A DNA stretch of 64,000 nucleotides from contig CAVRUH010000005.1 in assembly GCA_963724325.1 (NCBI GenBank), positions 256,001 through 320,000 on the forward strand, in the 5' to 3' direction. Under the pieces are notes generated by a model. The model did no database searches and was not told the DNA's origin. It saw nothing but the letters and a program-made list of their open reading frames with translations. Shown here one piece after another: positions 11,352 through 29,790 of the stretch. The translations under genes were made by a program, and so were the position numbers. How positions within the stretch are numbered: position 1 is the first letter of the stretch; every line of letters starts with the position of its first letter. The DNA comes from Waddliaceae bacterium. Its GTDB lineage: Bacteria; Chlamydiota; Chlamydiia; Chlamydiales; Waddliaceae.

Positions 11352-12200
11352 TTACGTATGACCAGTAATTGGACGGCATTGTAAGAGGTATAACACTTCA
11401 TTGTGAATGGCGAGTTCGACATCTACAGGATATCCTTCATTTTCCTCGAGTTTTTTGATCATTTTTGAAACTTCAGCAAGTTGTGTCGGAGAAAATGAGG
11501 GCTTTTCCTGAAGAAAAGAGGGGACTTTCACATCTTTAGTTCCATCGTTACTCGGAATTGTCATCATTACTTTTTTATGAATATCCATTTCAATGATGGT
11601 TGCAACATTATTTTTATCGATGACGAAATGATCTGGGCTGACACTGCCATCTGCAATGGCTTTTCCCAAACCAAAATTTCCATTGATGACAATTTCATTT
11701 TTGCTTTTTGTGACAGGATTAATCGAGAATGCTACTGCAGATACATCTGAAGCAATACAGGCCTGTATCAAAACTGCAATATGAATATGTTCTAAATTTA
11801 ATTCATGTTTTTTTCGGTATTCCTTGACAACATCATCGTGAGAAGAGGCCCAGCACTTAACAATCGCGTTGAATAGCATTTCTTCGCCAATAATATTGAG
11901 AAAGGTGTCATGTTGTCCGGCAAAAGATACATTTGGTTTATCTTCATCTACAGCTGAGGAACGCACTGCAACTGAGGGATTCTTTACCCCCATAATTTGT
12001 CCTAGTTTGTGATAACTTTCGGCTATTTCTTTCTTTTCAGTATCATCTAATGCAGTATGTTTCGCTTCAATTTTGACGGAAGCTATACAAAATCCAGGGG
12101 GGACATTAAATTTTTCTTTGAGACGGCTGCAATTCGCTGCCTTGGGTCCTACCCTTTGTGGATCATTGCAATTTTCATCTCCTAACCAACGTATATCCAA
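11352..12200 (-). CDS. Stand-alone PEP/pyruvate-binding ATP-grasp domain (PPDK_N), probable partner of 6363..8042
   Basis: VGPKAAN, VPPGF, VAVRSSAVDED, SFAGQHDTFLN, DVELAI...LLQCRPIT motifs; TTG start with RBS GGAGG. Confidence 0.88.
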   Translation of the reverse strand: MDIRWLGDENCNDPQRVGPKAANCSRLKEKFNVPPGFCIASVKIEAKHTALDDTEKKEIAESYHKLGQIMGVKNPSVAVRSSAVDEDKPNVSFAGQHDTFLNIIGEEMLFNAIVKCWASSHDDVVKEYRKKHELNLEHIHIAVLIQACIASDVSAVAFSINPVTKSKNEIVINGNFGLGKAIADGSVSPDHFVIDKNNVATIIEMDIHKKVMMTIPSNDGTKDVKVPSFLQEKPSFSPTQLAEVSKMIKKLEENEGYPVDVELAIHNEVLYLLQCRPITGHT

Positions 12201-12322
12201 AATCCAGCCTCCATTCTCAAAGTAATACCAAAAGAAAAAAAGAAGAGCAAGCTATAAAAATAATTTTAATAATATTGATGTTTAAAGGCGGATTTCATAA
12301 AATCCAGATTGGAGAATTTAAT

Positions 12323-12862
12323 ATGCCAAGAGGTCAAATTATGAAAGAACAAGAAGTTGCAGCATTAATTTTTAAGTTATATGAATTAGGCGGCAAGCCT
12401 GCAGCGCGTGGCGCTGGAATCAGGAAATATCCTGAGGAGGCAGCTTTAATTCTAAAACTCTATGAATTGCGTCGGGAGCCAGTCATGCGTGAAGCTAGAA
12501 AATGGTGTACCTGGTCGTTAAACTTCGCAAGTGCTCAGGATTATTTTGACATTATGTTAAGTGAGAACAGTGACAGGATGCGCATGGTTTTTTCATATTG
12601 GGACATGGCAGCTTGTTTAGTAGAAACTGGACACATCAGTGATAAATTATTCAATAGTGTTGCCGACGAGCACATGTGGATGTTGGCCATCATTGAACCA
12701 ATTCTTGATGATGTTCGAAAAGGAATGCAGCGTCCGGATTACTTGATAAATTTAGAAGCAGTCATACATCGCATTCCTGGATACAAAGAAATGTTAGAGA
12801 ATAAACGGCAGGCACTGAAGGGAATGAAAGCAATGGCAGCGGAGCGTATGAAGAAAAAATAA
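12323..12862 (+). CDS. DUF4760-like protein, paralog A (with duplicated N-terminal helix)
   Basis: LILKLYELRREPVMREARKW...MVFSYWDMAACLV; ATG 12323 after GGAG; stop overlaps bshC start (TAATG). Confidence 0.6.
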   Translation: MPRGQIMKEQEVAALIFKLYELGGKPAARGAGIRKYPEEAALILKLYELRREPVMREARKWCTWSLNFASAQDYFDIMLSENSDRMRMVFSYWDMAACLVETGHISDKLFNSVADEHMWMLAIIEPILDDVRKGMQRPDYLINLEAVIHRIPGYKEMLENKRQALKGMKAMAAERMKKK

Positions 12863-14151
12863 TGAAAATCATTATTCGCGAAAAGCCACAGCTCTATGCG
12901 AAGTCTCCATTAGAAAAATTTTTGGAGATTCCACCTCGAGATCCAATGGCGATCGCCCTTTCTAGAAAACAATTAGAAAATCGACAATTTCCCAGGAAAA
13001 CTTTATCTAATATATTAGTAGATTACAACCAAGCAATAGGAAATGATTCACTAGCTATTGAAAATGCAAAAAAAATAGCTACAGAAGGCTCAGTTTGTGT
13101 CATCACAGGACAGCAGCTTGGACTATTTGGAGGTTCCTCATATACTATCTTAAAAGCCATTTCAGCTCTTTTGCTAGCCAAAGAAACGAATGCGATCCCC
13201 ATATTTTGGCTTGCCACAGAAGATCACGACGTCGATGAGATCAACCATACCTTTCTTTTGGACCCTATGGGAGACCTAAAAAGATTTCGTCTATCTCTCC
13301 CTAAAGATCACCGATTTGTTGAAGAGCTTGAGTTATCCGATAGAGATTTTGATGTGATTGCCACTTTTCAGGAAAAGGCAAAAATCAGTGCCATTCCCGA
13401 TGAACGATCCTATGTTCTTTATATGATAAAACAACTTCTTCCTCTGTTTGCAGGTACAGGCATAGTATTCGTTGAACCGAAACTTTTAAGGCCGCTTGCA
13501 ACATCATTTTTCCAAAAAGAAATTGCTGAGTGTGATGCAATTACTCAAATTCTACGCACTACCACGGATGAAATAGTGAAGGCCGGCGGAAGAGAGGGGA
13601 TAGAGATAGCTGAAGGAACAAATCTATTCATGAAGCAGAATGGATTATATCGCCGCAAGATACATCGCAAAGGAAAGGGTTTTCAGATTGCCGCCAAGGA
13701 CTATTCCATGCAGGAACTCGCGAAAATGATAGCAGATCATCCCGAACACTTTAGCACGAATGCCGCTGCCAGGCCCGTTTTACAAAGTTTAATTTTTCCG
13801 ACGTTAGCGTATGTGGGCGGACCTTCTGAAATAAATTATCACTACCAATTAGGAAATTACTTTCGCTTTCACGGAATTCCCATGCATTTGATTGTGCCAA
13901 GAATTTCAGCAACGATGATTACGCCTCAAGCTGAAAAATTATTGCGTGAATCGGGGTTAAATCCATGGGATGAGTTACCTTTAAAGTCTTTTCACTACGT
14001 TCGGAACTTGATATACCCTCATGAAAAGCTCCAAGAACGGATCCTCAATTGGTGGTCATTTCAATCGGCATCAAGCGAAAATCTTGTACAAGCATTACTT
14101 AAAAATGCTAACTGGAATACTGATGGGCATCTGTTCTGTTTTTTGGATTAG
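12862..14151 (+). CDS. bshC: Bacillithiol biosynthesis cysteine-adding enzyme BshC (short form)
   Basis: VITGQQLGLFGG, PIFWLATEDHDVDEINH, FSTNAAARP, LAYVGGPSEINY, PHEKLQER motifs. Confidence 0.88.
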   Translation: MKIIIREKPQLYAKSPLEKFLEIPPRDPMAIALSRKQLENRQFPRKTLSNILVDYNQAIGNDSLAIENAKKIATEGSVCVITGQQLGLFGGSSYTILKAISALLLAKETNAIPIFWLATEDHDVDEINHTFLLDPMGDLKRFRLSLPKDHRFVEELELSDRDFDVIATFQEKAKISAIPDERSYVLYMIKQLLPLFAGTGIVFVEPKLLRPLATSFFQKEIAECDAITQILRTTTDEIVKAGGREGIEIAEGTNLFMKQNGLYRRKIHRKGKGFQIAAKDYSMQELAKMIADHPEHFSTNAAARPVLQSLIFPTLAYVGGPSEINYHYQLGNYFRFHGIPMHLIVPRISATMITPQAEKLLRESGLNPWDELPLKSFHYVRNLIYPHEKLQERILNWWSFQSASSENLVQALLKNANWNTDGHLFCFLD

Positions 14152-14301: not shown

Positions 14302-14727
14302 ATGAAAGAACAAGCAGAAGCAGATCTAATTTTAAAGTTATATGAATTACGTCAAGCACCTATCCTGAATGAGGCTAGAAAATGGTGCGTTTGGGCTCTA
14401 AATGTGAAGGCAGCTAATGATTTTTTTAATATTATGATGGGCGAAAATGGCGATCGACTGCATATGGTTTATTCGTATTGGGACATGGCAGCCTCTTTAG
14501 TGGAAAGTGGGGCCATTAATGAGAAATTATTTAATAAGATGACTGACGAACATATGTTGGTGTTTGCTTTGATTGAACCAGTCCTCGACGATATAAGGAG
14601 CGGGATGGACAATCCAAATTACCTTATTAATTTAGAGGCTGTAATTCGTCGCATTCCAGGTCATAAAGAAATGCTGGAAAAGAAACGACAAAAACTCAAA
14701 GCCATGAAAGCCATCAAAACAGGTTAA
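14302..14727 (+). CDS. DUF4760-like protein, paralog B
   Basis: EADLILKLYELRQAPILNEARKW...MVYSYWDMAASLV; collinear with 12323..12862. Confidence 0.6.
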   Translation: MKEQAEADLILKLYELRQAPILNEARKWCVWALNVKAANDFFNIMMGENGDRLHMVYSYWDMAASLVESGAINEKLFNKMTDEHMLVFALIEPVLDDIRSGMDNPNYLINLEAVIRRIPGHKEMLEKKRQKLKAMKAIKTG

Positions 14728-15898: not shown

Positions 15899-17938
15899 TT
15901 GGATAATGAAACATTAGTTAAGGAGACGGGACTCCTAAAAATTCATGATATATCGGTATCGAAAGATTATCTCAATGCATGTCCGGTAAAAAAAATTAGC
16001 AAGGGTCAGATTTTCTATAAAGTCGGTGACATGGCCGATACAGTCTATATCATCAAGAAGGGAAAAGTACAGATTTTCATTACGGATTCGCGTGGAGAAG
16101 AACTAATACTGTCACTAAGAAAAGAAAAGGGCTTTTTTGGAGAAAATGCGATCATTTACCACAATGGAATGAAGAGGCTCTCTAATGCTCGAGCTTTTGA
16201 AGATTGCGAATATATAATGTTGCCGCAAGAAGAGCTTTATAAGTCACTCAGATCTGATAAAGAAATTACCAAACTTAAGCAAGAACGAGGTCCTGACTAT
16301 GTTTTTCAACAGCTAGAGCAAAATTTTCAGTATCTTCAAAAGAGCAAATTAGATTTTTCAAGTATTCAAGAAAAAACCAGGGCATTTAAAGATAGACAGG
16401 TTATCTTCTTTCAAAATGATAAGCCAGATTATGCATATTTAATCATGAATGGAGAGGTGGATATATGGTCAAAGCAAGAAAATGGGAAAGAAGGTGTTAA
16501 TATTATCCTTGGACAGGGTGAAATTTTTGGGGAACTAGGTGTTTTAAATGGGAATTCTCGTAATGCGATGGCTGTTTCTCGTGGTAACAGCGAGTTGATG
16601 CTCATAAATAAGGAAACTTTGTTGCGATTGTGTGGATCAAACACCAATTTTAAAAATATTATATCCTCCCTCGGTAATGTCTACAATGTTCCTCTATTGG
16701 GCAAAGCAAGGCGCTATGAAGGTGACTTTTTGGGGATGCCTGCCATTTGTATTAAAATGGAAAGCTTTAAACAAAAATCATTCTTAAGTTATCAAGTTGT
16801 GGGTAAAGATATATTTTGCTTCTCCGTGCTTGACATTGAAGGATACCAATCCTACTCTTTCATAAAAAATACTGATGAACGAATGGAAATATGGATAAAA
16901 GACGATGTCTTGGTCGGTCTAGTTAATTATGGTTCCGTAGATGACGGCAGTTCAATAGTGCAAATGATTTTACATATGACCAAAATCAACAGCAATGCCA
17001 TCAGTCATTTCGAGAAAACCGGGAAATTGACAGATATAGTTGTTCAGCCGCTTAAGGTGATAAAGGGAACAATATGCCAATGTATGCAAGTTAGCTATCA
17101 AACTGTTAATGATACAATTAAAACCGGAGAGAGTTCTCTTAGCCAAATCGTTAAAATAACAGGTGCAGGATCGGTTTGCGGTTCTTGCAAACCCAGAATT
17201 CAGGAATTGCTCGGATATGACGTATGGAAACTTTGTAAGCTGACGAGAATCATCAAACACAATGAGAAAATATGGTCCTTTCAATACTCACCCATTAATC
17301 CAGCAGAAAAATTATCTTTTCTTCCTGGTCAGTACGTTGTACTAAGATGTTTAATTCACAAAGAATGGATCGAAAGACCCTATACTCTAACAAGTCACCC
17401 AAATGATGATTTCTATGAAGTAACTATCAAAAAGGAGGAAAGGGGGGCCTTATCTAGGTGGCTGTTTGAGAACGCTTATGAGGGAATGATTAATCACATT
17501 TCAGAACCGCAAGGTAATTTCATATTTGACAATCCATTGGAAAAGCCCGTTATTATATTTGCCGGAGGAATCGGTATCACACCAGCAATAATCATGGCTA
17601 AAATGATTAAGGGGAGCTATCACAATGGCATATATGTTGACTATTCCTATAGATTTGAAAACGATGCCATCACTAGGGATTTTTTTGATAGTGCATGCGA
17701 CAAAAGCTCTAAATTCCAAATTAAATATCGCAATACCTCTTCTAAAGGACGAATTAGTTCCGATGAAATTGCCGAACCTATAAGAACTTTCAAAAATGCT
17801 GATATTTACATTTGCGGTCCCGTTGCTTATAATGAAAATGTTAAAAAGATGCTTGTAGAAAAGCATACTGTTCCAACAGGGAGAATATTTGTTGAAAATT
17901 TCTCTTATATTGGTGGTCCTGAAAGAAAACCTGTATAA
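15899..17938 (+). CDS. Fusion protein: 2x cNMP-binding + NirB C-terminal-like segment + BFD-like [2Fe-2S] + ferredoxin-NAD(P) reductase FAD/NAD domains (putative P450 redox partner)
   Basis: FFGENAII...R and IFGELGVLNGNSRNA cNMP cassettes; ICQCMQV...TGAGSVCGSCKP BFD motif; ERPYTLTS, GALSRWL, FAGGIGITP, YICGP, VENF FNR motifs; TTG start with RBS AAGGAGG. Confidence 0.85.
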   Translation: MDNETLVKETGLLKIHDISVSKDYLNACPVKKISKGQIFYKVGDMADTVYIIKKGKVQIFITDSRGEELILSLRKEKGFFGENAIIYHNGMKRLSNARAFEDCEYIMLPQEELYKSLRSDKEITKLKQERGPDYVFQQLEQNFQYLQKSKLDFSSIQEKTRAFKDRQVIFFQNDKPDYAYLIMNGEVDIWSKQENGKEGVNIILGQGEIFGELGVLNGNSRNAMAVSRGNSELMLINKETLLRLCGSNTNFKNIISSLGNVYNVPLLGKARRYEGDFLGMPAICIKMESFKQKSFLSYQVVGKDIFCFSVLDIEGYQSYSFIKNTDERMEIWIKDDVLVGLVNYGSVDDGSSIVQMILHMTKINSNAISHFEKTGKLTDIVVQPLKVIKGTICQCMQVSYQTVNDTIKTGESSLSQIVKITGAGSVCGSCKPRIQELLGYDVWKLCKLTRIIKHNEKIWSFQYSPINPAEKLSFLPGQYVVLRCLIHKEWIERPYTLTSHPNDDFYEVTIKKEERGALSRWLFENAYEGMINHISEPQGNFIFDNPLEKPVIIFAGGIGITPAIIMAKMIKGSYHNGIYVDYSYRFENDAITRDFFDSACDKSSKFQIKYRNTSSKGRISSDEIAEPIRTFKNADIYICGPVAYNENVKKMLVEKHTVPTGRIFVENFSYIGGPERKPV

Positions 17939-17950
17939 AAGGAGCAATTT

Positions 17951-19306
17951 ATGTCTCAAATTCCTGAAATCAAAATGCCTATTCCGGAATTTTTTTCTTG
18001 GGACCATCACGATCCAATAGGGCTGAAAGATTATATCTTTAATACCTATGGCGATATTTCCCAATTCAAGATCGGGCATTTCACCAATTATTTTTTCATG
18101 CATCCTGACTATGCCCAAGTTATACTTGGCACAAAACAGGATGATTTTTTTTATAAGCACCCATTTTTGGTGAAGGGACTTGAGCCAATCGTGGGTACAG
18201 AAACTATTTTTACAATGAATGATCCTGAAAAATGGGAAAAAAATCGACGTCTAGCTGTGCAACCTCTTGATGCAATGTTCTATTTTGAAAGGTATGCAAA
18301 AAAGTTATATGAAACAGGGGAAAAACGGGTTGAAGGATGGTTTCAAAAATACAAAGACAATGAAAAAGTCAACATGGCTCGCGAATTTGGTTGCATGACT
18401 TTAAGCGCCATTCATAATTCTTTCTTTTACTATATCGACGATAATCTCGAAGAAATGCATGATATGTTGTATAGATGCGCTCGCATCATTATCGGAAAAC
18501 AGACCTCACTTAATCACGCTGAATGGGAAACACCTGAGAAAAAGAAACTTTATTCAGAAGCAGTTCAAACGTTGCGAGAAACCTATTTGCGCTGGGTTAG
18601 AACTCGTCTTGATTCTGGCGCAGAAATTGATGATTTCATGGGAGTGATGATTCATGAGTACGCAAAGGAGTATAGTAGAGAAAAACTAATCGATCAAATA
18701 GCAAGACACGCTGCCATGGCTTCCAATGCGGGATTTTTTACCACTTCACCTGCTGTCTTATGGCTTTTTATCCAGCTGGCAAGGCATCCTAATATCGAAA
18801 AGAAAATGTGTGAGGAAATCAAGCGTGTCATCGGTGATGGACAACCAACATACGATCAATTAAAGCAATTGACATACTGCAATGCAGTGATTAAGGAGTC
18901 CATGCGATTGAACTCCACAAGTTACAATCAATTGAGAGAGTCTGTGGTCGACACATCTGTTCAAGATTACTTTATACCAAAAGGATCTGGAATTTTCATC
19001 TGCACCTCTCAGATTCACCGCCACCCTGACTTTTGGAAATATCCTGATGTATTTGATCCCGATCGATTTTTAGATAAAGCAATGGGACAGGATCATCCTT
19101 TTGCCTATATACCCTTTGGAGCGGGCAAAAGATCTTGCATCGCCCGGCATCTCGTATTTTTAGAATTCCTTATTGTTCTTGTGCTAGTCACACGAAGGTT
19201 TTCTTTTGAACTCTTACCCTTCAAGACCATTAAGCCTATAATGACTGCACCAATAACCATGAGGCCTAATGAAGATAATCTGATCATAAAATTCAAAAAA
19301 ACTTAA
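17951..19306 (+). CDS. Cytochrome P450 (paralog A)
   Basis: AGFFTTS I-helix, KESMRL (ExxR), FDPDRF, PFGAGKRSCIA heme ligand. Confidence 0.95.
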   Translation: MSQIPEIKMPIPEFFSWDHHDPIGLKDYIFNTYGDISQFKIGHFTNYFFMHPDYAQVILGTKQDDFFYKHPFLVKGLEPIVGTETIFTMNDPEKWEKNRRLAVQPLDAMFYFERYAKKLYETGEKRVEGWFQKYKDNEKVNMAREFGCMTLSAIHNSFFYYIDDNLEEMHDMLYRCARIIIGKQTSLNHAEWETPEKKKLYSEAVQTLRETYLRWVRTRLDSGAEIDDFMGVMIHEYAKEYSREKLIDQIARHAAMASNAGFFTTSPAVLWLFIQLARHPNIEKKMCEEIKRVIGDGQPTYDQLKQLTYCNAVIKESMRLNSTSYNQLRESVVDTSVQDYFIPKGSGIFICTSQIHRHPDFWKYPDVFDPDRFLDKAMGQDHPFAYIPFGAGKRSCIARHLVFLEFLIVLVLVTRRFSFELLPFKTIKPIMTAPITMRPNEDNLIIKFKKT

Positions 19307-19362
19307 ATAACAATTCACAAAACTATAAAAACGCAGAGGCGGTGACATACTTTTGTGAATTA
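19305..19362. repeat. Short copy of the outer arm of the 5862-6368 element
   Basis: AAATAACAATTCACAAAACTATAAAAACGCAGAGGCG matches the reverse complement of the right arm of the large element; ends with TTTTGTGAATTA; lies between convergent genes. Confidence 0.75.
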
Positions 19363-20484
19363 TGATTTTTTATTTAGGATGTATTCGTAGAACTGAACGT
19401 AGTGATTGATGATGTGAGAGACTGAGAACTTTTCACGTGCTCTTTTAATACTTTGCTGGCTCATTTTTTCGTATGCAATATTGTCTGAAAGTAGTTCAAT
19501 GGCATGATTTGCCATGCCATCAATGTCGCCTACAGGGCATAAATAACCCGTAATACCGTTTTCCACTACTTCTGGAAGCCCGCCAACATTTGCCCCAATC
19601 ACCGGCACCCCATAGGTCATAGCTTCTAATGCCACCAGTCCAAAACTTTCTTGTTCACTTGGGAGCAAAAGAAGATCGGCGCTTGCAATATACGAGTCAA
19701 TTTCTTGGTTAATTCCCAGAAAACATACATCTTCATCAAGATGATGATCCTGCACCATTTGATATATGTTATCAACTTCAGGGCCTGTTCCAAGTAATAA
19801 TAGTTTGCACTCAATTTTCTTTTTCATTTTTGTGAAGATCTTAATCACATCTCCAACGCGTTTCAGGGCACGGAAGTTTGAGGAGTGCAAAATCAGCTTT
19901 TCCCCTTCTTTAATGTAGCTCTCACGCATGTTTTGCGTCCCGATGAGGTCTCCATGAGGAATAAAAAAATTGTGAATGACTTCAATAGGCTTCTGAATAT
20001 CAAAATACTTCATAGTCGTTTCTTTTAAGTTTTCAGAAACCGCTGTTACCCCGTCACTTTTTTCAATGCTGAATTTTACAATTTCAAAATAACTGGGGTC
20101 TATGCCAACAAAAGTGATATCTGTCCCATGCAGCGTGGTGATTACCACAGGTCTCGATGTCCCTAACAACTGCTTTGCCAAAAAGGCACTTGTAGCATGC
20201 GGAATCGCATAATGGACATGCAGGACATCTAAATTGTATTTTTTAGAAATAGCGGCGATCTTAACAGAAAGAGTCAAAGCATAGTCGGGGTATTTAAACA
20301 GATCATAACGATTAATTTCTACACGATGAAAAAAAATTTTTTTAGTCTCAAACCTAAGTCTGAACGGGATTTCATAAGAAATAAAATGGATTTCATGACC
20401 TAATAATGCTAGTTGGTGTCCAAGTTCAGTTGCAAGGATACCGCTTCCTCCTAAGGATGGATAGCACACAATACCAATCTTCAT
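19360..20484 (-). CDS. bshA: N-acetyl-alpha-D-glucosaminyl L-malate synthase BshA (GT4)
   Basis: MKIGIVCYPSLGGSGILATELG, LHVHYAIPHA, TTLHGTDIT, SNFRALKRV, ESFGLVALEAM. Confidence 0.93.
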   Translation of the reverse strand: MKIGIVCYPSLGGSGILATELGHQLALLGHEIHFISYEIPFRLRFETKKIFFHRVEINRYDLFKYPDYALTLSVKIAAISKKYNLDVLHVHYAIPHATSAFLAKQLLGTSRPVVITTLHGTDITFVGIDPSYFEIVKFSIEKSDGVTAVSENLKETTMKYFDIQKPIEVIHNFFIPHGDLIGTQNMRESYIKEGEKLILHSSNFRALKRVGDVIKIFTKMKKKIECKLLLLGTGPEVDNIYQMVQDHHLDEDVCFLGINQEIDSYIASADLLLLPSEQESFGLVALEAMTYGVPVIGANVGGLPEVVENGITGYLCPVGDIDGMANHAIELLSDNIAYEKMSQQSIKRAREKFSVSHIINHYVQFYEYILNKKS

Positions 20485-20491
20485 TAATTTT

Positions 20492-21175
20492 CTAAACCTC
20501 GCGAGTACCCTTGGATATGGTCATGATGTCATCAATAAACAGAGGATTCCCTTTCATCAACCCCTGCGCATAGGGAACGCCCATCATCATTCCCAACCGT
20601 CCTGCCACAGTGTGTGTAATTTCCATGAAATCCATCGTTTTCATTTGACTCTCATGACATTGGATCATCTTTCGCCAAGCCTCCATATGATCGGAAATGT
20701 CAATCAAAAAATCAGGAACGGAAATCATAGGTGTCATGCAGTGTAATATACCATCTGGTCGATGAATAGGGAGATCAGGTAATATTTTCGCAAAACGCGA
20801 ATAGCGACATGCATTCCTTGATAGAAGGCCTGCAGCTATATGGTCTGGATGATTCTGCTCGCCTTTCCAATACGGTCCAAGAACAAGCCGGGGCTTGAAT
20901 TTCCGATACACTTCCACTAATTTTAACCGGCCTTCATAGTTGTCAAATACTCCACAATCAGGAAAATCGAGTATCACAACCTCTGCTCCAATAACGTCTG
21001 CAGCATTTTTTGCTTCTTTGCGCCTTATTTCTGGAGTTCCATTAGTCCCTCTTTCTCCGGAAGTAAGATGTACCATTACAATACTTTTTCCCTGCGAAGC
21101 CATCTTGGCTAAGATCCCTCCGCAAGTAAACTCAATGTCATCTGGATGTGCCCCTATTGCTAAAATGTCTACCAT
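20492..21175 (-). CDS. bshB1: Bacillithiol biosynthesis deacetylase BshB1 (PIG-L family)
   Basis: DILAIGAHPDDIE, GERGTNG, HPDH; directly upstream of bshA. Confidence 0.85.
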   Translation of the reverse strand: MVDILAIGAHPDDIEFTCGGILAKMASQGKSIVMVHLTSGERGTNGTPEIRRKEAKNAADVIGAEVVILDFPDCGVFDNYEGRLKLVEVYRKFKPRLVLGPYWKGEQNHPDHIAAGLLSRNACRYSRFAKILPDLPIHRPDGILHCMTPMISVPDFLIDISDHMEAWRKMIQCHESQMKTMDFMEITHTVAGRLGMMMGVPYAQGLMKGNPLFIDDIMTISKGTREV

Positions 21176-21301
21176 ATAACCTCATTGATGTGTGTATCAT
21201 TATTTTTTATACATAAAGTTGTATTTATTTGGTAACTTAAATCTTAAGTCATTAATAGTCTGCATGTTACTAATAACTATATAAAAAAATTAATTGTGCT
21301 A

Positions 21302-21330
21302 TTGATTTTTATCATTAAAATAATTAGTAT
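21302..21330 (+). promoter_or_regulatory. Putative sigma70/sigma66 promoter for the Cys-rich peptide gene
   Basis: TTGATT-N17-TAGTAT, followed by hairpin GAGATAAG/CTTATCTC (21340-21361) and RBS GGAGG. Confidence 0.4.
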
Positions 21331-21395
21331 TAGGAAAGGGAGATAAGTGTGTTCTTATCTCTATCAATTAAACTATAAAGTCTTTGGAGGAAATT

Positions 21396-21608
21396 ATGGC
21401 AAATTCATTAAGAGAAGCAGTTAGAAAATGTTGTAGCACTGATCCACAAAAAGTTGTGAAATGTCTTGAGGCATGTAACATTCCACTAACTCCTGAAGAT
21501 AAAGCATGTTTTGCTCAGTGCCGTCTTGAAAAATTTTCTGATTCAAAACTCGAAGCATGCTTTAGTCCAAAAGTATGCGGTATGTTAGGAATTAAAAATC
21601 CTAAGTAA
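21396..21608 (+). CDS. 70-aa cysteine-rich peptide (8 Cys); candidate RiPP precursor, protease substrate or metal-binding peptide
   Basis: MANSLREAVRKCCSTDPQKVVKCLEACNIPLTPEDKACFAQCRLEKFSDSKLEACFSPKVCGMLGIKNPK; strong RBS GGAGG before ATG 21396. Confidence 0.7.
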   Translation: MANSLREAVRKCCSTDPQKVVKCLEACNIPLTPEDKACFAQCRLEKFSDSKLEACFSPKVCGMLGIKNPK

Positions 21609-21621
21609 TCTAGAATCTATT

Positions 21622-23616
21622 TTATGAAAGGCTGTTCTTCGCAGCCTTTCTCAGAGCATTTACCCTTAGTAAGAACTTAACGATGACCACAGATGGCAAA
21701 AGCCAGCTGAGGTGAACGGTTGCAATCCCTAAGATCGTTTCAGGCAATACCATTCTTAAATAGTACTGGAATTCATAAGCTATAAATACTCCTGCTACCA
21801 GAAAGATAAAACATATGAGCCAATAGATAAGTTCATTCGAAAATTTTGGCCGAGATAACCATTTGTAGGCATCAACATCAAGATATTGTTGATTCAACGC
21901 TTCTTTACAAATTCCATAACCATCGCCATCAAACAAGGGATTCAAATTCTTAAATACACCGTAATATAATAAAAATGCCAATAGCCAAAAAAAGATCGCA
22001 AGTTGCGGTAACGGTATGATCCATGCCAGAATGCCTGCTATTCCTCCCATAAACAAATCCGCAAATGGACCAGCTATGCTGACACAAATGCGAGATGTAC
22101 GGTCCTCTAACCACATATCGGAAGTATCGACATATGCAATTAAACCAACCCAGGACAATATAACCCCGCCGTGATGTACTTCTCGACCATGAGATTTAGT
22201 TGCATATCCATGAGCAGCCTCGTGTATAACTACTGAAAATAGATAAACTAATAGTAGAGAAAAAAGAAGAGGAGCAACTGTAAAATTGGATTGAAGAATA
22301 GTCATCCCCTGAGCAAAAAATAATGACCACATGACGATCCCCAAAAGAGAAATACCCAATGTGATGATAAAACCTATAGGAGTAAACAAATATTGTACTA
22401 CTTTGCTGTAACTGTTGTTAAATTTGTGATCGATGTTATTAAATGTAATTTGAATATGACTCCATTTCCATATCAGGTCTTGAATACGCACTCTCAATGG
22501 TAACTCTTCTTTTGTCTCAATGGTACTAACATGGTGAATTTCCGGCATAAGAACAAAACCGGCATCTGCCAAATTAAATAAGGTGTCTGCAATAGCATCA
22601 GGAGCAAATATTTTGTGTAACTTATACATGTCTACAGTAAGCTCTTCTATCGTTCTCGTACCATCCAAAAGCTCCCATATATACCATCCTTCCTGAGACA
22701 GTTTAAAATACTTCCGATTAACAGGATCCTTAAGAATAGTCATCTTTTGGTCATCGTCTAATTGTCTTTCATAATGAAGGGTCCTCGCAAGGCGTATGGG
22801 ACGACTTCTTTGCACAACAAGGGTCATCATGGAAGCATGAATGTCGTGGTGTTCAATTAAGGCATCCAATTGTTTGCGTTTAAGAACAAGCAAAACACAT
22901 TTCATAAGTGTCCTAGCATTGGCATTTCGAGGGGAATCTGTTAAAATTGCCATTTCGCCGCAAATCATCGGCGGTTCTAATAGCGCTAGCCTTTTTCCAG
23001 TGCTATTTGTAATTTCTACCTGCCCATAACGGACAAGATAGCACTCTTCACCTTGATCACCTTCATTAAATAATGTGGTCCCACCTTCTACAATTCGTTC
23101 TTGAATCTGATCAGCAAGCCAAAGTATTTTTTCTTCAGGTAATGCTTCGAAAGGTTCCACTCTTTTAATAAAATTCATTCGCAATAATTTTTCGCCCAAT
23201 TGCTGCGTACTAGAATTAAATTCAGGATGTTTTTGAAGAAAATAATAAAAAGTTTCTAAATCCCATCCGATTAAAACGGTCTCTGTCAATGTTGTCAGCG
23301 TAGCTGTCCTCAGACCCGTACGGCTGAAAAATCCAAGTCGACTGAGTCCTATTGCATCTCCTTCTTTCAAGAGGATCACAGGAATTAGTTTAATTTGATC
23401 TCCTTCTTGTATCTCATGAGCGACTTCAACTTTGCCTTGAGCTATCAGATAGATCGCATCGACAATTTTTCCCTGTGATATGATCACTTGATTTTGAGGA
23501 AAGAGCTTTTCAAAAGAAAGCTTCACTAGTTCATCAATTTCTTCGGTCTTTAACTGACTGAAAAATGGATGGCTTGATACTAAAGATTTCTTATTTTCGG
23601 AACTCACTGAAGTCAT
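21622..23616 (-). CDS. 2x cNMP-binding + PqqD/RRE-like + M50 (site-2) membrane zinc peptidase fusion
   Basis: ICGEMAILTDSPRNANA cNMP cassette; YFKLSQEGWYIWELLDGTRTIEEL...LFNLADAGFV PqqD-like; VIHEAAH (HExxH), SIAGP, NLNPLFDGDGY M50 motifs with TM helices. Confidence 0.85.
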   Translation of the reverse strand: MTSVSSENKKSLVSSHPFFSQLKTEEIDELVKLSFEKLFPQNQVIISQGKIVDAIYLIAQGKVEVAHEIQEGDQIKLIPVILLKEGDAIGLSRLGFFSRTGLRTATLTTLTETVLIGWDLETFYYFLQKHPEFNSSTQQLGEKLLRMNFIKRVEPFEALPEEKILWLADQIQERIVEGGTTLFNEGDQGEECYLVRYGQVEITNSTGKRLALLEPPMICGEMAILTDSPRNANARTLMKCVLLVLKRKQLDALIEHHDIHASMMTLVVQRSRPIRLARTLHYERQLDDDQKMTILKDPVNRKYFKLSQEGWYIWELLDGTRTIEELTVDMYKLHKIFAPDAIADTLFNLADAGFVLMPEIHHVSTIETKEELPLRVRIQDLIWKWSHIQITFNNIDHKFNNSYSKVVQYLFTPIGFIITLGISLLGIVMWSLFFAQGMTILQSNFTVAPLLFSLLLVYLFSVVIHEAAHGYATKSHGREVHHGGVILSWVGLIAYVDTSDMWLEDRTSRICVSIAGPFADLFMGGIAGILAWIIPLPQLAIFFWLLAFLLYYGVFKNLNPLFDGDGYGICKEALNQQYLDVDAYKWLSRPKFSNELIYWLICFIFLVAGVFIAYEFQYYLRMVLPETILGIATVHLSWLLPSVVIVKFLLRVNALRKAAKNSLS

Positions 23617-23742
23617 TTGCTTAAATATCCTTTCCTGCTTTCACTCAACATAGCTTATTGTAAAAATAATACTCAATCGATTTCGATTGACATAAAAGGA
23701 ATTTTTTAAGAATTTGAGTTCAAAAATGAGGTAAAGTGAAAA

Positions 23743-25068
23743 TTGAACATTGAAACATTCGTTAGGGAATTGGGGCCGCTTAATATTCGTGATAATGCCG
23801 TATCCATTGGATACCTCAGGAAATGTCAGACTAAAAAATTCCTTAAAGGTCAATTAATTTATAAAATTGGTGAGATAGCCGATGCAGTCTATGTCATTAT
23901 TAGCGGAAAAGTTAAAATTTTCTATATAAATGAAAGCGGCGAAGAACTACTAGTGGCAGAAAAAAAAACAAAAGAATATTTCGGTGCCGATGCCCTCATT
24001 ACTTTTATGCCTTGTACTCGATTTTCAACAGCTCGTGCTACAGAAGATTCCGAATGCTTGGTGTTACTCAAACATGAACTCTATAAGGAATTTGAAACTC
24101 CTGCTGAAATATCAAAACTCACCGAAACAATGGGTTCCGATAACCTTTACAAAGAACTGGAGCAAAGTTTTAAAGATCTTCAACAAAATAAAATAGATCT
24201 TTCAAATATTCATGAAAAAAAAGCAAAATACTTAGACCGTCAAGTGATCTTCTTTCAGAATGAAAAACCGTTATATGCCTACATCATTGTCAGTGGTCAG
24301 GTTGATATTCGATCAGATACTCTAAATGAAAAAGAGGGTTTTAATAGTACTCTCGAAAAAGGTGAAATTTTTGGAGAATTGGGTTTGCTAAAAGATAGAC
24401 CCAGAGCTGCGATGGCAGTTTCTCGCGGCAATAGCGAACTGATGTTACTGGATAAAGAAACACTATTGCGGTTATATGGATCCAACGCCAACTTCAAAAA
24501 TATCATTACGACCTTAGGAAATACCTACAATTTACCTTTAAACGGCAGAACAATACGTTACGAAGGGGTTTTTCTAGGCATGAAAGCCATTTGTGTGAAA
24601 ATGGAACCATCTAAAGAAAAAACAGTGGTGAGTTATCAAGTTGTAGGTAAGGATATCTTCTGTATTTCCCAATTGGGTATTGAAGGCTACCAAACATATA
24701 TCTACAAAAAAAATCTTGAAGAAAGAAAAGAAATTTGGATTAAAAATGATTTATTAGTCGGCGTCGTCAATTACGGATCCAAAGATGATAACAGCGCATT
24801 GGTTGTAATGGTATTACAGGAAACAAAAGTAAGTAATAATGCTATTATGATTTTTCAAAAAACTGGAATATTTACTGAGCAGGCTGCGCAACCACTCAAG
24901 GTGTTAAATAACTTGCTCTGCAGATGCATGCAAGTTGAATATCAAACGGTGGCTCAAGCGATTCAATCCGGAGAAAATTCATTGGAACAAATCACAAAAA
25001 TTACAGGTGCTGGATCAGTTTGCGGCAGCTGTAGGCCAAAAATTAAAGAAATGCTAGGAAAGGACTAA
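23743..25068 (+). CDS. 2x cNMP-binding + BFD-like [2Fe-2S] protein (paralog of 15899..17938 without the reductase domains)
   Basis: IFGELGLLKDRPRAA; LCRCMQV...TGAGSVCGSCRP followed by stop; TTG start. Confidence 0.85.
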   Translation: MNIETFVRELGPLNIRDNAVSIGYLRKCQTKKFLKGQLIYKIGEIADAVYVIISGKVKIFYINESGEELLVAEKKTKEYFGADALITFMPCTRFSTARATEDSECLVLLKHELYKEFETPAEISKLTETMGSDNLYKELEQSFKDLQQNKIDLSNIHEKKAKYLDRQVIFFQNEKPLYAYIIVSGQVDIRSDTLNEKEGFNSTLEKGEIFGELGLLKDRPRAAMAVSRGNSELMLLDKETLLRLYGSNANFKNIITTLGNTYNLPLNGRTIRYEGVFLGMKAICVKMEPSKEKTVVSYQVVGKDIFCISQLGIEGYQTYIYKKNLEERKEIWIKNDLLVGVVNYGSKDDNSALVVMVLQETKVSNNAIMIFQKTGIFTEQAAQPLKVLNNLLCRCMQVEYQTVAQAIQSGENSLEQITKITGAGSVCGSCRPKIKEMLGKD

Positions 25069-25081
25069 AAAGGAATAGCTT

Positions 25082-26437
25082 ATGCCCGAAATACCAGTAA
25101 TAAAAATGCCCGAATCAGAATTTTTTTCCTGGAATCGAAACGATCCCGTAGGGCTTCGAAGGTATATTTTTAACACCTATGGTGATATCGCTAAAATCGA
25201 TATGAAATCAATGCCTAATTATTTTTTTATGAGTCCAGACCATGCACAAGTTATCTTTGGTGAAAAACAGGATAATTTTTTTGATAAACATCCATTTCTG
25301 GTACATGGTTTTGCCCCAATCATTGGTACAGACACATTTTTTACTCTGAATGATCGAGAAAAATGGAAAAAAGATCGTCATATTGCATTGAAAGCAATAG
25401 ATGCCATGGTCCACTTCGAACGCTATGCAAAAAGAATGTACGAAATGGGAAAAATGCGTGTCGATGGATGGACACAAAAATATAAAGATAACCAAAAAGT
25501 CAATATGGCGCGTGAATTTGGTTCAATGACCCTAGACTTCATTCATAATTCCTTCTTTTGCTATATCGATGAAGTCCCTGAAAAAATGTACGACACCCTG
25601 TATGACTGCGTAGGTATCATCATTGATAAGCAAACCTCTCTTAAACCCTCCGAATGGGAAACGCCAAAAAAAATAAAAATTTATGAAGATGCTGTCGGTA
25701 CATTAAGACAAATATATCAGATCTGGGTAAAAAATCGTCTCGACTCAGGCCAGGAGTTTGATGATTTTATGGGTCTAATGATTCATGAATACTCAAACGA
25801 GTTTGGCAAAGAAAAATTAATCGAAAATATGGCTCTTCAAGTCTCTATGGCCTCTACTGCAGGATTCTTCACCAGTTCTCCTGCCTTTTTGTGGCTCTTT
25901 ATAGAGCTGGCACAGCATCCCGATGTGGAAAAGAAAATTTGCGAAGAAATCAATCGTGTCATCGGCGATGGTCAACCAACATATGAACAAATAAGACAAC
26001 TGTCTTACTGCAATGCCGCGATCAAAGAATCCATGCGATTGAATCCTACAAGCTACAATACATTGAGAGTGTGTACGGAGGATACCTATGTCAAAGATTA
26101 TTTAATTCCGAAAGGATCAGGAATCATCGTTTCTATATCCCAAATTCACCGCCACCCAAATTTTTGGAAAGATCCAGATACTTTTAATCCCGATCGATTT
26201 TTAGACAAACCAATGGGGCAGGATCATCCCTATGCCTTTATCCCTTTCGGGGCTGGTAAAAGAGCTTGCATCGCCCGGCAGCTTGTATTTTTAGAACTAC
26301 TTATCGCTCTGGTGCTCATTACACGTCGATTTTCTTTTGAACTTGTTCCTTTTCGGCCTATTAAACCAATAATGACAGCGCCCATCACCATGAGGCCAAA
26401 TGAGACCGATCTGATCATAAAATTTAAAAAAACTTAA
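25082..26437 (+). CDS. Cytochrome P450 (paralog B)
   Basis: AGFFTSS, KESMRL, FNPDRF, PFGAGKRACIA; same length as and collinear with paralog A. Confidence 0.95.
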   Translation: MPEIPVIKMPESEFFSWNRNDPVGLRRYIFNTYGDIAKIDMKSMPNYFFMSPDHAQVIFGEKQDNFFDKHPFLVHGFAPIIGTDTFFTLNDREKWKKDRHIALKAIDAMVHFERYAKRMYEMGKMRVDGWTQKYKDNQKVNMAREFGSMTLDFIHNSFFCYIDEVPEKMYDTLYDCVGIIIDKQTSLKPSEWETPKKIKIYEDAVGTLRQIYQIWVKNRLDSGQEFDDFMGLMIHEYSNEFGKEKLIENMALQVSMASTAGFFTSSPAFLWLFIELAQHPDVEKKICEEINRVIGDGQPTYEQIRQLSYCNAAIKESMRLNPTSYNTLRVCTEDTYVKDYLIPKGSGIIVSISQIHRHPNFWKDPDTFNPDRFLDKPMGQDHPYAFIPFGAGKRACIARQLVFLELLIALVLITRRFSFELVPFRPIKPIMTAPITMRPNETDLIIKFKKT

Positions 26438-27886: not shown

Positions 27887-28780
27887 ATGAATACAATACT
27901 ATCTTTAGATGGCGGCGGTGTTCGTGGAATTATGCCCGCTGTTGTTCTAGCAGAAATCAACGATCTTGCCGGTAGACCTTTGACCGAACTTTTCCACTAC
28001 CAGATAGCAAGTTCAACAGGTGGTATCATTCAAGGAGCAAGTAATCTCCCCGATAAACCATTTTCCTATAAAGATATCGTTCAGCTCTATAAAGATAAAG
28101 CTCAAGATATTTTTAATAGAACTATTTGGAGTAAAATCACAAACCCAGAAGGATTATTTAAACCTAAATACCCTGAAACTGGCATTGATGCATTGTTCAA
28201 AAAAGAGTTTGGAGATGTAACCTTAAGTCAACTACGATCCAAGCATATTCATTTTACCTCTTACGACTTGCAGAAAGAGGCTTTTGTGACCCTGAATAGT
28301 AAAGATAACCCGAAAATGCTTTTGCGGGACACAGTTCGCGAGGCAACAGCGGCTCCATATTATTTTAAAGAGAAATCTGGGCATATCGATGGGGGGGTGG
28401 GAGCAAATAATCCTTCAGGAGTCGGGTATAGTATTGCAGTAAAAGAGGGTGCCTCTAATAGAAATACATTTGTATTATCTGTAGGAACTGGAAAAGTAAA
28501 AACCGGAATTAACTTAGGCGACGGAGGCCTTTTGGGAGTTCTTCCAAAGCTTCCTAGGCTATATACGGAAGTCGAAATGGGGGCTGCAGATTTAATGATG
28601 ATCAATTTTCTTGGAAAAAATTATTTCAGGATCGAATTTAGCCTCACAGACGAACAGGATTCATTAGATAATGCATCCTCAGATAATTTAAATACCCTTG
28701 AAAAAATTGCTGAAACCTACATAGATAACCACAAAGATGATCTAACAAGACTAGTCAAAAAGCTAGTTGGTAAAAAATAA
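27887..28780 (+). CDS. Patatin-like phospholipase
   Basis: LSLDGGGVRG oxyanion loop, ASSTG nucleophile elbow (GxSxG variant), AAPYYF, DGGVGANNP, LSVGTG. Confidence 0.88.
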   Translation: MNTILSLDGGGVRGIMPAVVLAEINDLAGRPLTELFHYQIASSTGGIIQGASNLPDKPFSYKDIVQLYKDKAQDIFNRTIWSKITNPEGLFKPKYPETGIDALFKKEFGDVTLSQLRSKHIHFTSYDLQKEAFVTLNSKDNPKMLLRDTVREATAAPYYFKEKSGHIDGGVGANNPSGVGYSIAVKEGASNRNTFVLSVGTGKVKTGINLGDGGLLGVLPKLPRLYTEVEMGAADLMMINFLGKNYFRIEFSLTDEQDSLDNASSDNLNTLEKIAETYIDNHKDDLTRLVKKLVGKK

Positions 28781-28798: not shown

Positions 28799-28963
28799 TA
28801 TACCGAAGTAACCTCATAATTTGATTTTGTGGCTTCGTCAAAGCCCCGGGGTTGAATCGATCGTAAATGACCTTATATTTCTAATATTAGGTCATTTACG
28901 ATCGTTCAACCGCGGGTGCTTTCACGAAGCCACAGAACCAAATTATGAGGTTACTTCGGTATA
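28799..28963. repeat. 165-bp imperfect palindrome (MITE/REP-like)
   Basis: TATACCGAAGTAACCTCATAATTTG... and ...CAAATTATGAGGTTACTTCGGTATA arms with pairing along most of the length; overlaps OTU gene stop. Confidence 0.85.
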
Positions 28964-29790
28964 AGTAAGTCGTAGTGCCCTGGACGATAGAGGAGTGAAA
29001 TGTCTTCTCCATTTCCGCCAATAAAATGGTGCTCGGCATCCATGGGTTCTCCTTTTCCTATTGCAGAAGCATGCAGGATGTGAAACTTTAAACCTAAAAC
29101 ATCTGCAAGAACGTTAAGTTCAGCATTACCTCCCATTTCAGCCTTAGCCATATCTACCATCTTGAGTTTATAATTCTTGTAAGAGCCATAATCGACAATT
29201 GCAGCATTTATAGCGCCTTCATTATTTTCCGTCCCCCTAACAGCAATTTTACGCAGGATATGTACAAGTTTGTTAGATAATCGGGTATTTCCAATTAAAC
29301 TTTCAACGGAAGCATCCTTGTTTTCAGCGAGAAAATCTGCTAGTTCTTTTGGAATAGCATCATTTATATCCTTGCCATTTTTAAGGTGGTATAGCATTCC
29401 AGCAGCAATAGCGCGGAACATGCAGTGGCCATCCCCCTTTATCCTACGCAATTTGTATTGGGTATCTAAGGTTTCCAATCCTTTTTTGACATCACCTGAA
29501 TCATAGGTTTTTGCAAGTGATTTTAGAGTTGATTGTTTGTCCATGAGAGGTCGTTGGACCTGTTTTGCATCGATTTTGCTGAAAATTTTGGTAGCAATAC
29601 TTTCCAAACGTTGGCGAAGTTCAAATACCTGTCTTGGATTGTGACCTCTTTCCCGCAGGCCGCTTAAGTCATCTTCAAAAATCTCAATAAATCCTTTGTC
29701 TACCTCACAACCATTCTTTTGTGCTTTTTCCATGCATTGCATAAAGTAAACTGTATCTTGATATGAAGGGAAATTATTATTATTTACCAT
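28951..29790 (-). CDS. OTU/otubain-like cysteine protease (putative deubiquitinase effector)
   Basis: RRIKGDGHCMFRAIA (D-x-x-C) and LLYRPGHYD (His box as in otubains). Confidence 0.82.
   Translation of the reverse strand: MVNNNNFPSYQDTVYFMQCMEKAQKNGCEVDKGFIEIFEDDLSGLRERGHNPRQVFELRQRLESIATKIFSKIDAKQVQRPLMDKQSTLKSLAKTYDSGDVKKGLETLDTQYKLRRIKGDGHCMFRAIAAGMLYHLKNGKDINDAIPKELADFLAENKDASVESLIGNTRLSNKLVHILRKIAVRGTENNEGAINAAIVDYGSYKNYKLKMVDMAKAEMGGNAELNVLADVLGLKFHILHASAIGKGEPMDAEHHFIGGNGEDISLLYRPGHYDLLIPK

Follow-up and report, generated by a model that had tools for sequence, protein, structure and literature searches.

A conserved gene pair in a Waddliaceae bacterium: a membrane protease with RRE and cyclic nucleotide-binding-type domains and a small NHLP-clan peptide

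In a 64,000-nt stretch from a Waddliaceae bacterium of the phylum Chlamydiota (assembly GCA_963724325.1, contig CAVRUH010000005.1, positions 256,001 to 320,000; hereafter the window, in which coordinates are counted), a forward-strand open reading frame (ORF; 21396..21608) encodes a 70-amino-acid peptide with eight Cys residues. It ends 13 bp from the stop codon of a reverse-strand gene (21622..23616) for a 664-amino-acid protein, as the preliminary description of this DNA had stated. In the larger protein, two cyclic nucleotide-binding (cNMP) domains and a recognition element (RRE) for ribosomally synthesized peptides that undergo post-translational modification (RiPPs) are fused to a site-2 (M50-type) protease. 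The two genes are genetically linked and make up a pair of the RiPP-precursor/RRE-protease type, and the conserved pair is likely to constitute an undescribed peptide-release system that a second messenger would switch on. In the literature searched, a cNMP-RRE-site-2 protease accompanied by an NHLP peptide is nowhere described, and the supplements of the RRE-Finder and daptide studies could list members. The fusion family spans Chlamydiota, Gammaproteobacteria, Actinomycetota, Chloroflexota, Armatimonadota, Elusimicrobiota, Cyanobacteriota and other phyla.

The architecture of the fusion was established by domain matches and a structure model (predicted local distance difference test, pLDDT, 88). 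Motif and domain scans bear out the two cNMP domains, the PqqD-like winged helix and the intact HExxH/NxxPxxxxDG protease that had been read from the sequence earlier. A protein search with the fusion returned 45 matches; 28 of these, the fusion itself not counted, cover at least 87% of the query and form with it a 29-row alignment from which the conservation counts below are taken. The closest fusion (P0002) matches at 53-55%. Pfam detects both cNMP domains (1.7e-32). Domain A (23227..23508) retains Gly90 (29/29) and Arg103-Thr-Ala (Arg103 in 27/29), and domain B (22846..23094) carries Gly220, Glu221 and Arg230 in all 29 homologs. The best structural matches of domain B are cyclic-nucleotide-binding domains (Z 20.4, root-mean-square deviation 1.6 over 129 residues). 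The RRE/PqqD-like domain (residues about 280-351; 22564..22779) is modelled as three strands (280-285, 291-297 and 302-306) followed by three helices (308-316, 323-334 and 339-351) at a pLDDT of about 77-89, and its Pfam PqqD match (residues 294-331) scores 22.9 bits against a cut-off of 23.4.

The membrane protease domain (residues about 374-664; 21622..22497) appears as a helical membrane domain in the full-length model. Its HEAAH motif (residues 465-469; 22210-22224) lies within a predicted helix (447-475), and HExxH is retained in 28 of the 29 homologs. The domain also contains VDTSDMW (22111-22131) and, starting at residue 557, the third-ligand motif NLNPLFDGDG (21919-21948; N557, P560, D565 and G566), of which D565-G566 is invariant (29/29). 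The Pfam Peptidase_M50 model (PF02163, residues 455-534) gives 24.1 bits against a cut-off of 27.2, a value exceeded by two homologs (28.6 and 31.1). The catalytic motifs of the fusion and the nucleotide-binding motif of domain B are intact. Fold searches with the full-length model were dominated by the cNMP domains, so that structure barely probes the RRE and protease parts. A predicted complex of fusion residues 268-664 with the peptide (score 0.00, mark 0.32) gives no evidence either way. No full-length fusion was found in the plasmid collection at E ≤ 1e-15.

Linkage of the two genes was assessed in two scans of genomes and metagenomes. Of the 177 and 260 loci that these gave, the best 80 each were taken, and 11 loci from relatives brought the total to 171. 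Within these, tblastn with the peptide (E ≤ 1e-5) finds only six other loci (L002 and L011 represent the same site), and each of the six matched peptides is encoded directly upstream of a close fusion homolog. A profile built from six such peptides, with the window peptide excluded, retrieves the window peptide at an E value of 2.7e-16. Profiles were needed: used alone in a word search, the peptide sequence retrieved nothing but itself. A second profile was built from 11 small ORFs adjoining more distant fusions. At least fusion residues 200-540 are covered at E < 1e-20 in 59 of the 171 loci; removal of three duplicates and addition of the frameshifted L028 yields a set of 57. With the two profiles (E ≤ 1e-3), an NHLP-like peptide is matched in 41 of these 57 loci, which come from many phyla. 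Seventeen of the 41 are seeds or the window itself and 24 are non-seed loci (L104 nearly duplicates L037, and L028 nearly duplicates L015). Peptide homologs unlinked to the fusion, sought by tblastn and with the profiles as evidence against the pairing, did not emerge as the pattern, and the pairing proposed earlier stands. Five further peptide/fusion pairs, drawn from a protein collection in which 30 peptides were looked up, share a longest contig of the same size (58746, 38792, 88089, 45480 and 54532), which is an indirect sign of linkage.

The same picture holds within the phylum. In the 2.37-Mb genome (G000; 11 contigs, 85% complete), this peptide is the sole match of the two profiles at E < 0.1. 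When 400 genomes from the phylum were compared, the complete fusion was found only in G000 and a genome of the same genus (G001), as were the strong peptide matches; the other four peptide matches are weak, three lying inside long ORFs and one running across stops. The order of G405 (63 genomes scored) gave no further peptide match. In G105, a stand-alone cNMP-cNMP-RRE gene (L196:1450-2565) occurs with neither a protease part nor a peptide match. The convergent arrangement of peptide and fusion had been raised as a caveat. It is no objection to the pairing, since five other fusion genes have a convergent partner (the second copy of L012, L047, L044, L117 and L121); at L026 the partner is divergent.

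The start of the peptide gene is supported by a Shine-Dalgarno sequence (GGAGG, 21386..21390) 5 nt upstream of the ATG, in agreement with the ribosome-binding signal noted previously. Relatives begin at the matching Met. An alternative upstream TTG start, which would give a 74-amino-acid peptide, was rejected. The promoter-like signal reported with it was not recovered: a sigma-70 consensus scan gave no site in 21100-21396 on the forward strand, and the region total was 10 sites against 9.3 expected. Between the convergent genes, within the last codons of the protease gene, a terminator-like hairpin (21626..21650, both strands; -15.6 kcal/mol; z -3.4 on the forward and -2.5 on the reverse strand) could terminate both transcripts, and was missed by a separate terminator scan. 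The peptide is modelled as five short helices (pLDDT 74). Fold searches with this model returned no match at E ≤ 0.001; the best hit was an unrelated chain (Z 4.2, root-mean-square deviation 2.9 over 60 residues).

Profile comparisons place the partner peptides, as judged from their sequences, in the Os1348/NHLP leader clan. Of 10 distant partner peptides, eight score above the threshold of NF038399 (Os1348 family, NHLP clan), and the profile of this distant group matches structure 6LK7 at an E value of 9.6e-9. Its entry name and 85-amino-acid length, and PMC7726476, indicate that 6LK7 is the Os1348 structure. Aligned by hhalign, the distant-group profile matches the profile of the window group with 97.4% probability (E 1.1e-11, 51 columns). 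By profile comparison, the window peptide is a precursor-like, divergent member of the clan. The groups have in common a leader end, L..R.SK in distant relatives and L..RFN.K in the close group. Most distant members have 1-7 residues after this motif; in the close group it is followed by V-L-G-x-L-G-I and a variable polar tail. By alignment, the putative leader of the window peptide comprises residues 1-59 (21396..21572), ending LEACFSPK. The part predicted to be released comprises residues 60-70 (21573..21605), and its family counterparts show V-L-G-x-L-G-I and then tails of 3-50 amino acids. The window peptide retains D49, L52, F56, K59, V60, G62 and G65. With these assignments, 'leader-only' proteins of the Os1348 clan gain a candidate processing enzyme. 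Beside some fusions (L097:9768-9941 and L099:7482-7899) there is a second, unrelated-looking peptide family, whose members have 55-57 amino acids and end in E-F-E-x-R-x-S-K and a short tail.

Clustering of 1422 ORFs from 54 loci revealed one specific recurring neighbour enzyme, a polyprenyl-synthetase-fold protein at 12 distinct loci (13 of 59 with a duplicate). In these prenyltransferase-like proteins a first Asp-rich motif is present, and the second motif is degenerate and preceded by a Gln. The same pattern is described for trans-IDS-like (ComQ/PalQ-like) peptide prenyltransferases (PMC13290415). Three-gene clusters of Os1348-clan precursor(s), ComQ/PalQ-like prenyltransferase and cNMP-RRE-protease occur at L027:6787-9986, L022:4754-10007 and L033:6294-9947, and also at L019, L020, L032, L039, L040, L047, L076, L025 and L029. 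Precursors in these clusters mostly have tails of 1-3 residues that lack Trp, and several loci carry two or three precursor copies with differing ends. The clusters bring into view an unstudied group of prenyltransferases, most of whose precursors have no terminal Trp. In a FastTree phylogeny of 68 fusions, the 7 with peptides of the window type (group A) are split from the 12 with a prenyltransferase by a branch with a support of 99. Neither the window locus nor the loci of its close clade carry a prenyltransferase gene, and the prenyltransferase profile gives one weak match each in G000 and G001, elsewhere in the genome and probably to a housekeeping enzyme. L047 also has a squalene-hopene-cyclase-like neighbour (weak Pfam match). 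In Azotobacter vinelandii (L058:4596-6745), a pair of short ORFs showing L..RISK and a C-terminal Cys adjoins a related prenyltransferase-like gene and an RRE-protease homolog that lacks a cNMP match.

The pairing, the domain architecture, the intact motifs and the leader-clan homology lead us to propose a two-gene, RiPP-type module, a reading that we consider to have about an even chance of being correct. The RRE domain of the protease would likely grip the end of the folded NHLP-type leader, and binding of cyclic AMP (cAMP) or cyclic GMP (cGMP) to the sensor domains would switch on the membrane-embedded zinc site. Cleavage is predicted near Lys59/Val60 or within V-C-G-M-L-G-I, and the short C-terminal peptide would be released, probably outward as a signal. 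As a prenyltransferase has been added in distant phyla, the ancestral product was probably prenylated; with no modifying enzyme nearby in this clade, the product here is probably unmodified. Removal of RiPP leaders is usually treated as a constitutive last step. If the proposal is true, a protease with its own cyclic-nucleotide sensors would make release directly regulated, and would join intracellular cAMP or cGMP and a peptide signal in one protein.

The link of the pair to cyclic-nucleotide signalling has independent genomic support. Class III cyclases are encoded near 5 of 54 fusion loci versus none of 103 control loci, which belong to relatives lacking the full match (Fisher p 0.004, from 0.65 versus 1.07 Mb, with kin loci that are not independent). 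At L054 the cyclase gene overlaps the start of the fusion gene. In G406 the fusion adjoins a hybrid histidine kinase, and on a different contig (C61; L191:1946-4895) genes for a response regulator and a HisKA-REC-class III cyclase lie between two peptide copies that face each other. G000 itself encodes, on contig C7 (390763-403796), four tandem near-identical proteins of 1070 amino acids, in which CxxC repeats at the N terminus are combined with a class III cyclase domain.

Several observations weigh against the proposed release mechanism. Neither profile matches a peptide at 16 of the 57 fusion loci. Several of these have short flanks and two carry another small peptide bearing E..R.SK, but L013, L102, L054 and L023 lack a peptide despite about 8 kb of flank on each side (in the genome of L013, peptides are located on another contig than the fusion). 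In the flanks examined, 49 of the 54 fusion loci lack a cyclase, and neighbour clustering over the same 54 loci yielded no receptor gene that recurs beside the pair. Domain A of the fusion lacks the usual Glu, which is Leu here and in 23 of the 29 homologs. The window peptide has no direct family match in NCBIfam or Pfam, and NF038399 gives weak matches to three of six close relatives (12-17 bits against 40). The leader-end Arg55, conserved in 29 of 33 relatives, is Cys in the window peptide (as in 1 of 33), and RRE recognition could be altered or lost as a result. Furthermore, the polar tails are free to vary in both length and sequence, and so resemble a dispensable tail more than a secreted signal.

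The strongest competing explanation is intracellular regulated proteolysis. Here the folded NHLP-like domain would itself be the working part, as a dimeric regulator or inhibitor, and the gated protease would remove or inactivate it with a cut in the hydrophobic V-L-G-x-L-G-I anchor, with no exported signal. Site-2 proteases classically perform regulated intramembrane proteolysis, conservation spans the first 66 residues of the peptide and then stops, and many distant partners have only the 1-7 residues past L..R.SK. Os1348 crystallizes as a stable helical dimer (PMC7726476). In contrast, the RRE and the best family match of the fusion, to the daptide protease, point to leader-dependent maturation, and a prenyltransferase-like gene at 12 distinct loci with two or three precursor copies that differ at their ends is the usual RiPP pattern. 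On balance, we regard regulated proteolysis as rather unlikely.

The short tails are also compatible with recycling of a scaffold in the manner of the pearlins. A carboxypeptidase would clip one or a few C-terminal residues, prenylated or otherwise modified, off a reusable peptide, and the modifying enzyme would have been lost or moved elsewhere in the genome in this clade. Many prenyltransferase loci do encode tails of 1-3 residues, mostly lacking Trp, and TglG and TmoG are M50 proteases with that activity (PMC10885120). Such clipping is nevertheless improbable for the window peptide: group-A peptides extend 3-50 residues past G-x-L-G-I, an amino-acid-appending enzyme is found neither among the recurring neighbours nor among the 18 window proteins scanned, and the prenyltransferase-profile matches of G000 and G001 are single, weak and elsewhere in the genome.

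The eight Cys residues (positions 12, 13, 23, 27, 38, 42, 55 and 61) are exceptional both for this genome (proteome Cys rate 1.27%; P about 3e-6 for eight in 70) and for the family. A profile search of 1.84 billion representatives gave 35 matches; one 2171-amino-acid repeat match was dropped, and of the 33 others compared, 27 are Cys-free, 4 contain a single Cys and 2 contain two. Five additional relatives from the protein collection have none. Cys stands in place of G42, R55 and L61, each of which 29 of 33 relatives retain, and the other five Cys occupy positions of lower conservation; several of the codons are more than one base change away from those of the relatives. Four DNA sequencing runs yielded pieces of 151-246 bases, none of which overlaps the peptide gene. 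The multi-base changes and the replaced conserved positions argue for selection rather than drift. This copy is an outlier, in which an eight-Cys pattern has arisen on a Cys-free scaffold. The preliminary description had taken the Cys residues and internal repeats to define the peptide. The repeat strings are present in the sequence, but they align to three different, non-repeated parts of the conserved family fold, and an internal duplication was rejected on this ground. Membership in a metallothionein family was likewise rejected, since the Cys pattern is not kept (27 of 33 relatives lack Cys).

The Cys residues are most simply explained as a recent change in the lineage that provides intramolecular disulfides or a metal site on an old fold. 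Two neighbouring predicted helices carry C23-x3-C27 and C38-x3-C42, where relatives have small residues, and in the model their placement would suit either role. They also raise the possibility that the peptide has left the module in this lineage to serve as an independent thiol protein that buffers metal or redox state. It would then be regulated together with the divergent bacillithiol genes, and the protease would be idle or act on a different substrate. Apart from the Cys residues themselves, with their multi-base codon changes and the replacement of three near-invariant positions, this view draws on the 220-bp divergent intergenic region that the peptide gene shares with bshB1-bshA, and on the lack of a bshB1 match in G001 with this genome's bshB1-like query. 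We find it doubtful, because the peptide gene is still 13 bp from an intact protease gene, because the residues D49, L52, F56, K59, V60, G62 and G65 are kept, and because this is the sole family peptide found in the 85%-complete genome.

A bolder combination would retain the release mechanism and add the Cys residues to it. A cAMP- or cGMP-licensed RRE-site-2 protease would secrete a peptide signal, prenylated in free-living phyla and unmodified in this clade, under a thiol-redox lock formed by the two CxxxC helices and the pairs around the cut site and tied to the bacillithiol genes of the shared intergenic region. The result would be a cyclic-nucleotide AND redox gate. As a joint claim this is improbable, and we offer it tentatively.

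The preliminary description had further suggested that two flanking P450 cassettes may belong to one second-messenger-controlled module. Cassette A (15899-19306) encodes a P450 and a tandem-cNMP, BFD-type [2Fe-2S] protein fused to an FAD/NAD reductase. Cassette B (23743-26437), from which the fusion gene is divergent as reported, encodes a P450 and a tandem-cNMP, BFD-type [2Fe-2S] protein that lacks the reductase. The cassettes are duplicates (58% and 69% identity) whose upstream regions align, and the tandem-cNMP [2Fe-2S] protein is, by its sequence, a candidate cyclic-nucleotide-regulated redox partner of the P450. Among 401 genomes, the window P450s are found at E ≤ 1e-40 only in G000; G001 keeps the peptide/fusion pair and has no close P450. 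None occurs at any other fusion locus, where the sole P450 seen (L029) is 25-27% identical over partial length. A P450 was therefore rejected as a conserved partner, and the cassettes are a separate, locally duplicated unit that is probably unrelated to the pair. P450-crosslinked RiPPs use aromatic Trp, Tyr or His in the core for their crosslinks, and the 70 residues of the peptide include none of the three, as had been cautioned before. Oxidation or crosslinking of the peptide by the two cassettes in a single second-messenger-controlled cluster is very improbable: all three neighbours bear tandem cNMP domains, and the restriction of both the Cys-rich form and these P450s to G000 is compatible with recent lineage-specific recruitment, but close P450s are absent from the other loci, two similar cNMP-ferredoxin genes on contig C7 lie near neither a P450 nor the pair, the P450s score 90-96 bits against the ApyO model (cut-off 525) and, among solved structures, are best matched by CYP3A4 and BM3, and a FadL-family transporter gene follows cassette B.

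Other features of the window lie around these genes. A perfect palindrome (TCAATCG-N4-CGATTGA, 23673-23690) between the fusion and cassette B is unique in the genome at up to one mismatch and is partly kept upstream of cassette A. Bacillithiol genes, which the preliminary description did not mention, occupy 12862-14151 and 19360-21175; bshC and bshA score above NCBIfam cut-offs and the bshB1-like gene scores 172.5 against 182.5. The bshA and bshB1-like genes lie between cassette A and the peptide gene, divergent from the latter. Two DUF4760 genes (12158-12862 and 14302-14727) flank bshC. Genes for a patatin-like phospholipase (27887-28780) and an OTU/otubain-like protease (28951-29790) may encode host-directed effectors. 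The genome also encodes a Cys-rich lipoprotein that we take to be OmcA-like.

The pair shares features with several known systems. On the peptide side, the distant partners pass the Os1348 family cut-off and match 6LK7, whereas the window peptide, with its eight Cys, has no direct match and is missing the region of the distant partners' first helix. The Os1348 cluster carries acetyltransferase, HEXXH-domain and SagB-type genes and no cNMP-RRE-protease (PMC7726476). The ComQX, PalQX and StheQX systems are similar in the prenyltransferase-type gene at 12 distant loci and in the NHLP leader of PalX (PMC10853753). They differ in that the window locus and its clade lack a prenyltransferase, most family tails have no terminal Trp and the window peptide has no Trp at all. 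The accessible parts of PMC13290415 and PMC10853753 name no dedicated protease for these systems.

On the protease side, the best NCBIfam match of the fusion is the daptide RRE-protease model NF041824 (residues 281-583, E 4.9e-23), with 81.9 bits against a cut-off of 300 (four homologs, 84-144). As in daptide MpaP, an RRE lies N-terminal to an intramembrane HExxH protease and short precursor ORFs adjoin the gene; removal of the daptide leader is ascribed to an RRE-fused site-2 protease (10.1101/2023.03.08.531785). In contrast to MpaP, the fusion has two extra cNMP domains and its partner is an NHLP-clan protein. The daptide leader motif ELExMEAP and C-terminal Thr are absent from the peptide, and daptide modifying genes are absent among the 18 window proteins scanned. 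TglG/TmoG and EpeP/YydH are likewise M50 membrane proteases that act on ribosomal precursor peptides. In the accessible part of PMC10885120, TglG, TmoG and EpeP cut RiPP precursors, EpeP is thought also to export, and cyclic-nucleotide domains are not mentioned for them. The fusion matches NF058609 (EpeP/YydH) at an E value of 1.6e-8 with 34.5 bits against a cut-off of 225, and matching modifying enzymes are not present here. The system would work like the daptide, epipeptide and pearlin proteases and, by cut-offs and gene content, stands outside those families.

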